Shown: one piece after another, positions 23,014-23,785 of the stretch | How the letters are laid out: every line of letters starts with the position of its first letter | Position numbering within the stretch: position 1 is the stretch's first letter | From: Escherichia coli | Lineage (GTDB): Bacteria; Pseudomonadota; Gammaproteobacteria; Enterobacterales; Enterobacteriaceae | Length of the DNA: 64,000 bases | Reading direction: 5' to 3' (one strand) | Assembly (NCBI RefSeq): GCF_002854065.1 | Contig: NZ_CP024147.1 | Program-made: the position numbers and the translations under genes | Notes under the pieces: model-generated | What the model saw: only the letters and a program-made list of their open reading frames with translations | Told to the model about the DNA's origin: nothing | The model's database searches: none

Positions 23014-23717
23014 CTCAGTTATAACACAATACGATTTACAATAGATAGTTTCGCGATGATAAGCATTACTGCGTACCGTGAATATCCTACGTTATACAGG
23101 GTTACGGGTAAAAACTATCGGGTCTGCGGTGAGACATGTCATTTTCATCGGTACATCCCCCGTTAAAGGGGAAATTATCTTTCCGGTCTTCATTTTCTTA
23201 ATAAAGTCCAATTTTTGCTCAGTGTCATCCTGGTATCTCTTTCATTTCTGATTATCCCACACAGAGGATTCAGCCAGAAAAGTACATTTTTCAGTTTCTA
23301 TCCCCTCACTCCGGCTCCTCCCCTTTCAACACTGATTTCGGGAAAACAAGCATGCGCCTAAAAAACAATCAAAACAGTCCGTATAAGTTACTTAGGTTGT
23401 CTGCTACTACAATCCCCTACCTTCTCAGTCAGTTGTTTATGGACTGACAGGAAGTAAAAAAGCCTATTAAAAAGAGCAAAAATAAGCAGCTAAACAAACA
23501 GGAAGCCTCTCAATCAAATGATAGTATTCCGAAATCAGCAGTTCAGCATGTAATAGGTACACGAGGGAGTTATGGTCTCTAATGAGTCGAGTTCACCAAG
23601 CACAAGAAGGATGGAAATTGCCGGACACCAAACTCTGGAAAAGTCCCATCCTGCCCAGAAGCCTTCCCCCACAAGGCTTTCCAGTTTTTCTACAGTTAAA
23701 TCGTGTATGGGTACTGC

Positions 23718-23732
23718 GTGACCATGCGTTAA
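23718..23732 (+). other. gor: 15-nt remnant matching the 3' end of gor (…VTMR-stop); inferred island/chromosome junction
   Basis: GTGACCATGCGTTAA encodes VTMR*, which matches my recollection of the Gor C-terminus (...EEFVTMR). The frame is closed by a TAA at 23697, so nothing upstream is gor. Confidence 0.45.
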
Positions 23733-23739
23733 ATGTTAA

Positions 23740-23768
23740 AGGGCTAAGAGTAGTGTGCTCTTAGCCCT
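23740..23768. terminator. Bidirectional hairpin terminator (gor / dinQ)
   Basis: AGGGCTAAGAG-tagtgtg-CTCTTAGCCCT forms the hairpin. Confidence 0.7.
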
Positions 23769-23785
23769 TAATTACGTTTCCGCTA

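Follow-up and report, generated by a model that had tools for sequence, protein, structure and literature searches.

A probable strand-biased circularizing integrative element at the 3′ end of gor in Escherichia coli

We examined the right junction of a genomic island in a 64,000-nt stretch of the Escherichia coli contig NZ_CP024147.1 (assembly GCF_002854065.1), the whole of which we call the window. The best joint explanation of the observations is a 26,084-bp SE (strand-biased circularizing integrative element) inserted at the 3′ end of gor, and we consider this assignment highly probable. SEs, a poorly known class of tyrosine-recombinase transposons, are defined by four core genes (intA, tfp, intB, and srap), by two terminal motifs, C and C′, that are imperfect inverted copies of each other, by a 6-bp footprint, and by recombination between attL and attR that leaves no empty site (Idola et al. 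2023, PMC10214605; Nonaka). The proteins of a C-terminal tfp open reading frame (ORF; WP_050438664.1) and of srap (WP_032288336.1) of E. coli NZ_CP024147.1 have been catalogued as a tfp/srap ortholog pair and synteny block, with the termini left undefined (Additional file 3, PMC10214605). Within this known class, the island is a new E. coli member and a defective one, and its exact borders are set here for an SE that carries a 12-kb plasmid-type arsenic-resistance block at a conserved hotspot in gor.

The right border was located by a similarity search of the window against 5,426 complete E. coli genomes. In 5,422 of them the matching sequence starts at position 23717, inside the last codons of gor, and DNA to the left of this position is matched in two only, those of strains CUWW06 (wastewater, Thailand; NZ_CP182139.1, where the window is matched from position 4428288) and 100416. 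The initial annotation had placed the junction in the last 15 nt of gor, with Gor ending in ...EEFVTMR and gor preceding dinQ in K-12, and had suggested alignment with the gor-dinQ backbone as a check. Both statements are borne out, since K-12 gor ends in ...GAAGAGTTCGTGACAATGCGTTAA and is followed by the same hairpin and dinQ. At 23718-23732, GTGACCATGCGTTAA is present as described, its frame interrupted by a TAA (23697-23699) that lies six sense codons before it, and the hairpin (23739-23769) and dinQ (23786-23869, minus strand in the annotation of NZ_CP182139.1) lie directly 3′ of the gor piece. The hairpin (-22 kcal/mol, z = -6.6) is identical in K-12; it represents the native gor/dinQ terminator and belongs to the chromosome, not to the island.

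For the left border we used a stretch of CUWW06 (locus L003) that reaches 10 kb further left than the window and whose coordinates equal window + 10000 up to ~15300 and window + 10001 past that point. An intact gor, predicted initially at the far left end outside the window, is found at L003 6291-7646, its end lying 2,354 nt to the left of window position 1. It is annotated as gorA in CUWW06, where the annotated order is gor, island, dinQ, and encodes 451 amino acids (aa) instead of 450, its 3′ end reading GAA GAG TTC GTT ACC ATG AGA GGT TAG (EEFVTMRG-stop). Alignment of three sites gives the left junction, attL, as ...GAGTTCGT joined to TACCATGAGAGGTTAGTGTAGAAAAAC, the empty site, attB, as ...GAGTTCGT joined to GAC(A/C)ATGCGTTAAATG, and the right junction, attR, as ...GTATGGGTA joined to CTGCGT and then to GACCATGCGTTAAATG. 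The hexamer GTTCGT is thus retained in attL, CTGCGT is carried by attR, and island-free genomes have the empty site as GAGTTCGT joined to GACCATG. A synthetic 60-nt empty site, composed of the left flank of attL and the right flank of attR, is found intact at 100% identity in island-free E. coli (12 island-free genomes listed, and up to 128 records in the band of ≥99% identity); therefore, the junction is real and precise. With intact gor on the left, a gor tail on the right, and the uninterrupted site in island-free strains over all 60 nt, the initial proposal that the island integrated into the 3′ end of gor is upheld.

The 15-nt piece at 23718-23732 had been taken as one copy of an att-derived repeat. 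It is the attR-side remnant of gor, but only 13 of its nucleotides, 23720-23732 on the plus strand (GACCATGCGTTAA), are certain to derive from it; according to the attL/attB/attR alignment they are the orphaned, untranslated final 13 nt of the original gene. BLAST similarity starts at 23717 and not at 23720 because CGT is common to the spacer CTGCGT and the attB hexamer GTTCGT. The repeat does not hold: the left copy reads GTTACCATGAGAGGTTAG, which is the element's own motif C and merely resembles the gor tail, and the two borders have in common only the interrupted similarity CGT.ACCATG, with no true duplication. We also considered whether the C of GTGACC at 23722 was derived from the element, which is ruled out because ACC also occurs in E. 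coli genomes that have no island; this codon is a natural variant. The same gor tail follows the spacer in the E. coli, Salmonella, and Enterobacter relatives.

Both ends of the element carry SE-type termini. Motif C (TACACTAACCTCTCATGGTA; L003 7631-7650, minus strand, ~2.37 kb before window position 1) and motif C′ (~23690-23713, ...CTACAGTTAAATCGTGTATGGGTA, ending in ...AAATCGTGTATGGGTA at 23713) are imperfect inverted repeats that both end in GTA, as do the termini of SE-6945, and the terminal inverted repeat extends to GTTTTTCTACA at 23684-23694, an 11-mer that is the inverted copy of L003 7647-7657. The published termini are C = TACACTAACGTGTCATGGTA and C′ = ACTGTAACAGTGTGGTAGTA for SE-EasCA1043, and C = GACATTAACCCCTCATAGTA and C′ = CAAAATAAAGCGTGGGAGTA for SE-PmiBC1123 (Additional file 6, PMC10214605); our motif C agrees with the former at 18/20 and with the latter at 16/20 positions. 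As in other SEs, the target is not duplicated, GTTCGT lying beside C and the hexamer CTGCGT beside C′. A second, internal C motif 5′ of intA, as in tandem elements, was looked for and ruled out, as the island contains one copy only.

On the left side, gor runs up to ...GAGTTCGT and is met there by motif C, whose sequence TACCATGAGAGGTTAG completes the ending ...EEFVTMRG-stop, and a terminator-like hairpin comes after it. We scanned left borders with the query TACYATGANNNGTTARTGT in one genome per species and obtained at least 120 stretches. Among the matches listed, gor is fused in frame to motif C in at least 24 species representatives, with the pattern ...(I/L)HPT[AGS][AS]EE[FL][VC] followed by TM[RTK][GRS]-stop, and the hexamer beside C is native gor sequence in all 24 fusions. 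The hosts include Vibrio, Shewanella, Parashewanella, Pseudoalteromonas, Arsukibacterium, and Motilimonas as well as Proteus, Photorhabdus, Cedecea, Scandinavium, Buttiauxella, and Limnobaculum. Because these fusions keep both the native hexamer and an in-frame gor ending, motif C doubles as the end mark of the element and the source of the last codons of gor.

The 6-nt spacer between C′ and the target (CTGCGT, 23714-23719) was delimited by comparison with relatives L006-L020, which are contigs encoding Srap homologs. Ten related right ends have in common ...TTTCTACA.T..AATC.TGTATGGGTA, then six variable nucleotides, then the target; C′ is kept in all ten and resembles C′ of SE-EasCA1043 and SE-PmiBC1123. 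The spacer followed by the gor tail is CTGCGT in the window and strain 100416, TTGTGT in L010, L011, and L015 (E. coli-like) and in L017 (Enterobacter), and CAGCGT in L006 and L008 (Salmonella). It is GTTTGT in L007, where a different target follows, and TTGCGT or CTGTGT in L012-L014, where it is followed by TACCATGAGATAG..., which is C-like or gor-like. Since the hexamer differs across six independent right ends while C′ and the target are constant, we place the end of C′ at 23713, the spacer at 23714-23719, and sure gor sequence from 23720 on. In experimentally studied SEs the donor site supplies the hexamer beside C′, and the target keeps its own hexamer beside C (PMC9345347, PMC10214605), and by analogy we infer that the window spacer would have been brought from a donor site. 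In L007 the element of L006 is found again, but at a site outside gor, and the hexamer there, GTTTGT, is the one from gor that occurs most often beside C among the matches listed; this agrees with what the rule predicts if a copy has moved away from gor.

The recombinase genes, initially called integrase genes, form not an Int/Xis set but the four-gene SE module intA, tfp, intB, and srap, in this order and with overlaps at 17413-23013, and no Xis is present. intA (17413-18756, plus strand; RefSeq start ~17452) encodes a tyrosine recombinase of ordinary size with a match to PF00589 (E = 3e-8, 34 bits versus a gathering score of 27.1, residues 218-419) and 79% identity over 438 aa to IntA of L013, the relative whose core proteins served as tblastn queries for judging the core genes of the window. 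The tyrosine-recombinase-fold protein gene tfp (18749-20472, plus strand), delimited by tblastn with L013 Tfp, encodes 573 aa in relatives, and its product gives only a weak SAM-like match. intB (20469-22565, plus strand) is collinear in a single frame with all 698 aa of the putative large recombinase IntB of L013 (697-699 aa in relatives), and R338 (in GMRESEL), H483-x-x-R486, H510, and Y519 are invariant in six IntB homologs at canonical spacing, as read by eye. srap (22558-23013, plus strand; WP_032288336.1) encodes the 151-aa SE-associated recombination auxiliary protein, whose 98 homologs come from Enterobacterales and from Vibrio, Shewanella, and Photobacterium and are without a Pfam domain bar one stray match; none of the ORFs after intA in the operon was assigned to a Pfam family. 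Intact relatives have IntA of 436-442, Tfp of 573, IntB of 697-699, and Srap of 152-154 aa, encoded by overlapping genes in the same order. The GC content of the core genes is 37-43%, versus 48-52% in the chromosome on either side.

Two core genes are broken in the window. A 1-nt deletion near 19778 splits tfp into ORFs of 346 and 214 aa, so that L013 Tfp residues 15-342 match in one frame and residues 343-572 in another (tblastn); at this site the window has GCTATCACC where strain 100416 has GCTTATCACC. In intB, GGA in strain 100416 corresponds to TGA at 22269-22271, which leaves ORFs of 600 and 84 aa; if our reading of the alignment is right, the stop at codon 601 would remove a Cys-rich C-terminal part and not the catalytic residues. 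Because of the tfp frameshift, the premature stop in intB, and ~70 nt missing between two conserved blocks near C′ (described below), the window copy is probably immobile. The damage in strain 100416 is different, with IS3 and IS1 inserted in intA and tfp; both known copies thus appear defective and to be decaying independently.

The ~700 bp between srap and C′ had been described as untranslated DNA next to the recombinase genes that would hold arm-type sites. The first part of this statement stands. No ORF of ≥60 aa lies in 23014-23581, as reported, the ORFs overlapping this interval being 57, 48, 45, and 49 aa long, and a 60-aa ORF begins at 23582; an ORF-free stretch of ~570 bp at 43% GC is unremarkable in itself. 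Arm-type sites would be plausible there at most, and the direct and inverted repeats within 22950-23760 are short two-copy matches at chance level. Promoter-like sites occur at the same level as in shuffled sequence, and a search of 23014-23732 against Rfam at permissive thresholds gave no match, the sole real match being AgrB downstream (24144-24228). A terminator-like hairpin was found by pattern scan after srap at 23156-23172. The two ends of the element each contain YTGKAGAAAA-type words, and four 9-mers are common to both ends in direct orientation versus ~0.4 expected; they are not kept as common words in the L013/L012 element, so we take them as suggestive at most and did not count them as arm-type sites.

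Comparison with relatives divides the region into a variable and a conserved part. Non-coding backbone at 23014-23437 is found in close relatives only; in L012 and L006, which are more distant, no similar sequence could be detected. Within it, 23014-23284 is 90% identical to the DNA that follows srap in L010 and L015; homology resumes there at 23279 and carries on over 23279-23561 and 23550-23760. In more distant relatives only ~230 bp adjoining C′ are conserved: block A (23438-23538), 78-79% identical in L012, L013, L006, and L007, and block B (23583-23713), 76-78% identical in distant relatives, which comprises an imperfect hairpin (23658-23680) and C′. The identity of the two blocks (76-79%) is on par with that of the core genes, in elements where Srap is only 72-76% identical and the cargo differs. 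Both blocks are non-coding, as indels among relatives are not multiples of three. The region is element backbone and not a degraded gene, and the conservation of blocks A and B suggests that they are probably part of an extended recombination site bound by SE proteins.

At 23561/23562, between the two blocks, ~64-77 nt are absent in the window and in strain 100416 and present in 5/5 relatives compared; the missing stretch is bounded by GGTACA-like words. AAGTA at 23280-23284 is the unoccupied site at which L010 (823-4813, 4 kb) and L015 (2338-3149, 0.8 kb, a shorter derivative) carry a nested insert. This insert is flanked by a duplication of AAGTA, and its inverted ends, each with about three TTTGCATTTNACTTG-like words, resemble those of transposons with several transposase-binding sites.

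The SE assignment suggests the following course of events. The island would be a transposon-like element bounded by C and C′ and moved by IntA, Tfp, IntB, and Srap. By analogy with studied SEs, it would move by way of a nicked circle for which a single strand is copied out, leaving no empty site; on insertion into gor, the spacer CTGCGT would have been carried in from the previous location of the element, and the central hexamer of the target, GTTCGT, would have stayed beside C. The 700 bp would then comprise a probable operon terminator, an unoccupied transposon site, and ~230 bp of conserved DNA beside C′. Several points weigh against this account. (i) The copy-out and the strand bias are taken over from work on SE-6283 and SE-6945, not from the window element. 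(ii) IntB matches nothing in Pfam (E ≤ 10) or in a PDB profile search, and the assignment of its catalytic residues rests on an alignment read by eye. (iii) The tfp frameshift could be an assembly error. (iv) Most attR spacers at gor sites (YTGYGT) match no gor hexamer, and a 3-nt crossover in [C/T]GT is a possible alternative. (v) Neither of the hairpins in the 700 bp is energetically significant (z = -0.6 and -1.1). (vi) Helicase, VspR-like, helix-turn-helix (HTH), and ars genes, ~19.8 kb in all, separate C from intA and the operon adjoins C′, whereas the SEs described so far have their core operon beside C. The L013 element has the same layout (C, helicase, VspR-like gene, HTH gene, AIPR cargo, then intA), and the orientation of the operon is still from C towards C′.

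A competing view of the 700 bp is that they are a remnant of lost cargo, a decayed gene, or a small RNA without a role in recombination. The restriction of the first 424 bp (23014-23437) to close relatives, the cargo genes that other relatives carry between srap and block A, and the ~70-nt deletion at 23561/23562 all fit such a view. We nevertheless regard it as improbable, because blocks A and B are conserved like core genes (77-79%) despite other cargo and always abut C′, no ORF is conserved, given indels that are not multiples of three, and no Rfam match falls inside the region. Still less room is left for a lambda/P4-type integrative island, in which one integrase would recombine an identical attP/gor core, leaving a direct repeat, with arm-type sites in the 700 bp. 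Insertion at a gene 3′ end with the frame restored, a PF00589 integrase, non-coding DNA adjoining the border, and the four direct 9-mers common to both ends (~0.4 expected) are all features such an island would have. The anatomy of the borders nevertheless largely refutes it already: the 15-nt piece is unrepeated, the borders having in common only the mismatched CGT.ACCATG (10 nt, interrupted), the ends are inverted repeats ending in GTA, and the border hexamer varies between insertions. Furthermore, no Xis-like gene accompanies a four-gene module with a putatively non-catalytic Tfp and a 698-aa IntB, and repeats in the 700 bp stay at chance level, with no repeat-like arm sites.

Equally hard to sustain is the assignment to GInts (three integrases, ginABCD), which are found in 7.5% of Escherichia replicons versus 0.3% for SEs, insert at gene ends without changing the product, have imperfect 10-17-nt flanking repeats, and yield attachment-site variants on excision, since the apparent order of catalytic, non-catalytic, large catalytic, and small protein is that of SEs whereas GInts start with two catalytic genes, the searches for orthologs of Tfp and Srap were what retrieved these proteins whereas GinC and GinD form separate clusters, and the termini match published SE termini.

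Among known systems, the closest are SE-EasCA1043 (Enterobacter asburiae) and SE-PmiBC1123 (Proteus mirabilis), which have the same target, their attB ...CACCC.ACGGC.GC.GAAGA.TT.GT..C.ATGCGTTAA reading as a gor 3′ end, near-identical C, C′ ending in GTA, and the same core genes. The gor target is already in the literature as this attB, though unnamed there; the main text of the SE papers does not name gor. The window element differs from both in its E. coli host, in its cargo (two ars clusters), in the position of its core operon at the C′ end, far from C, and in its two broken core genes. SE-6283 and SE-6945 (Vibrio alfacsensis; Nonaka et al. 2018, 2022) likewise have the four-gene module, imperfect inverted C and C′ motifs with GTA at their ends, a spacer of 6 bp beside C′, and few preferred targets, and SE-6283 repairs its target gene bcp. 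Their proteins are very distant from those of the window element (the two Vibrio SEs are mutually only 20-27% identical), their targets differ (bcp, yjjNt, insJ), and their mobility was shown experimentally, whereas the window element is known from sequence. GInts (Bardaji et al. 2017) are alike in their four-gene operon, which encodes among others a recombinase-fold protein that is non-catalytic and a small protein of the coiled-coil type, their imperfect flanking repeats, their insertion at gene ends, and their attachment-site variants; they differ in gene order (in the window the second gene is probably non-catalytic and the third large and probably catalytic), in protein clusters, in their wider host range, and in an operon directly at the 5′ border. 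Tn554 of Staphylococcus is also site-specific, with a 6-bp footprint copied from the left flank of the donor to the new right flank. It differs in its three genes (tnpA, tnpB, tnpC) with no Tfp counterpart and in its Firmicutes hosts, whereas the window has a tfp gene between intA and intB in an E. coli host.

We tentatively propose that the gor 3′ end may be a hotspot for one SE clade throughout the Gammaproteobacteria, extending from Vibrio and Shewanella to Proteus and Escherichia, that C may serve as recombinase core site and as a surrogate coding end of Gor, that 23438-23713 with the YTGKAGAAAA words would be the first definable accessory (arm-type) sites for Tfp and Srap, and that enterobacterial members carry cargo between C and intA. 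If this is true, cargo in that position would contradict the published need for an uninterrupted attL-intA-tfp-intB unit. For annotators, the left end has the signature gor...GT joined to TACYATGA...GTTARTGTAG, and the right end ...TGTATGGGTA followed by 6 nt and GACCATGCGTTAA. The relatives provide a set of natural insertions for testing the 6-nt 'fingerprint' rule; no new mechanism is revealed.

The element interior seen in the window (1-17001; annotation of NZ_CP182139.1) comprises a left module with a VspR-like gene (434-1063, minus strand) and an HTH gene (1162-1473), and cargo with an AAA ATPase gene (1862-4474) and two ars clusters (~5400-17001). Between C and the cargo, a DEAD/ResIII helicase gene forms a conserved three-gene module with the VspR-like and HTH genes (L003 7776-11473, reaching window position 1473; L013 116-2478), into which IS2 is inserted in CUWW06. 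Variable genes follow this module, AIPR in L013 and NADAR/PRTase-CE/DUF6530 in L018-L020, which look like phage-defence cargo. A contig search with the VspR-like protein (434-1063) found no relatives. The ars block (5421-17001) contains arsR/D/A/B/C, a second arsD/arsA pair, arsH, a sigma-factor gene, and a permease gene, and has 92-95% identity to modules that many E. coli plasmids carry, in many cases beside Tn3-family transposases; ending ~410 bp 5′ of intA, it gives the impression of a separate, acquired unit within the SE. Between arsH and arsR (~15293-15392) the window is 1 base shorter than NZ_CP182139.1, and positions to the right of ~15300 that were taken from NZ_CP182139.1 shift by one.

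Some relatives show arrangements with more than one element. The stretch TACCATGAGATAG after C′ and the spacer in L012 (12081-12110; also in L013 and L014) resembles motif C or the gor tail (TMR-stop) and may be the remnant of an earlier SE (tandem insertion) or the native gor end of the host. The Salmonella contig L006 carries at 1-2951 the core genes of another SE, distinct from the one at the gor site, with an IntB-like protein of 707 aa and a Srap-like protein of 144 aa. They lie a few kb upstream of the gor-site SE, whose own core is truncated by an IS3-family element; this arrangement suggests tandem or nested SEs.

Downstream of the right border, the native ars locus 3′ of dinQ (24144-25500) is, in this lineage, without arsR and arsB, AgrB being followed directly by arsC. 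IS1 adjoins this native arsC, with slp and the 5′ part of dctR removed relative to strain 100416. The ars genes of the island may compensate for the absent native ones.

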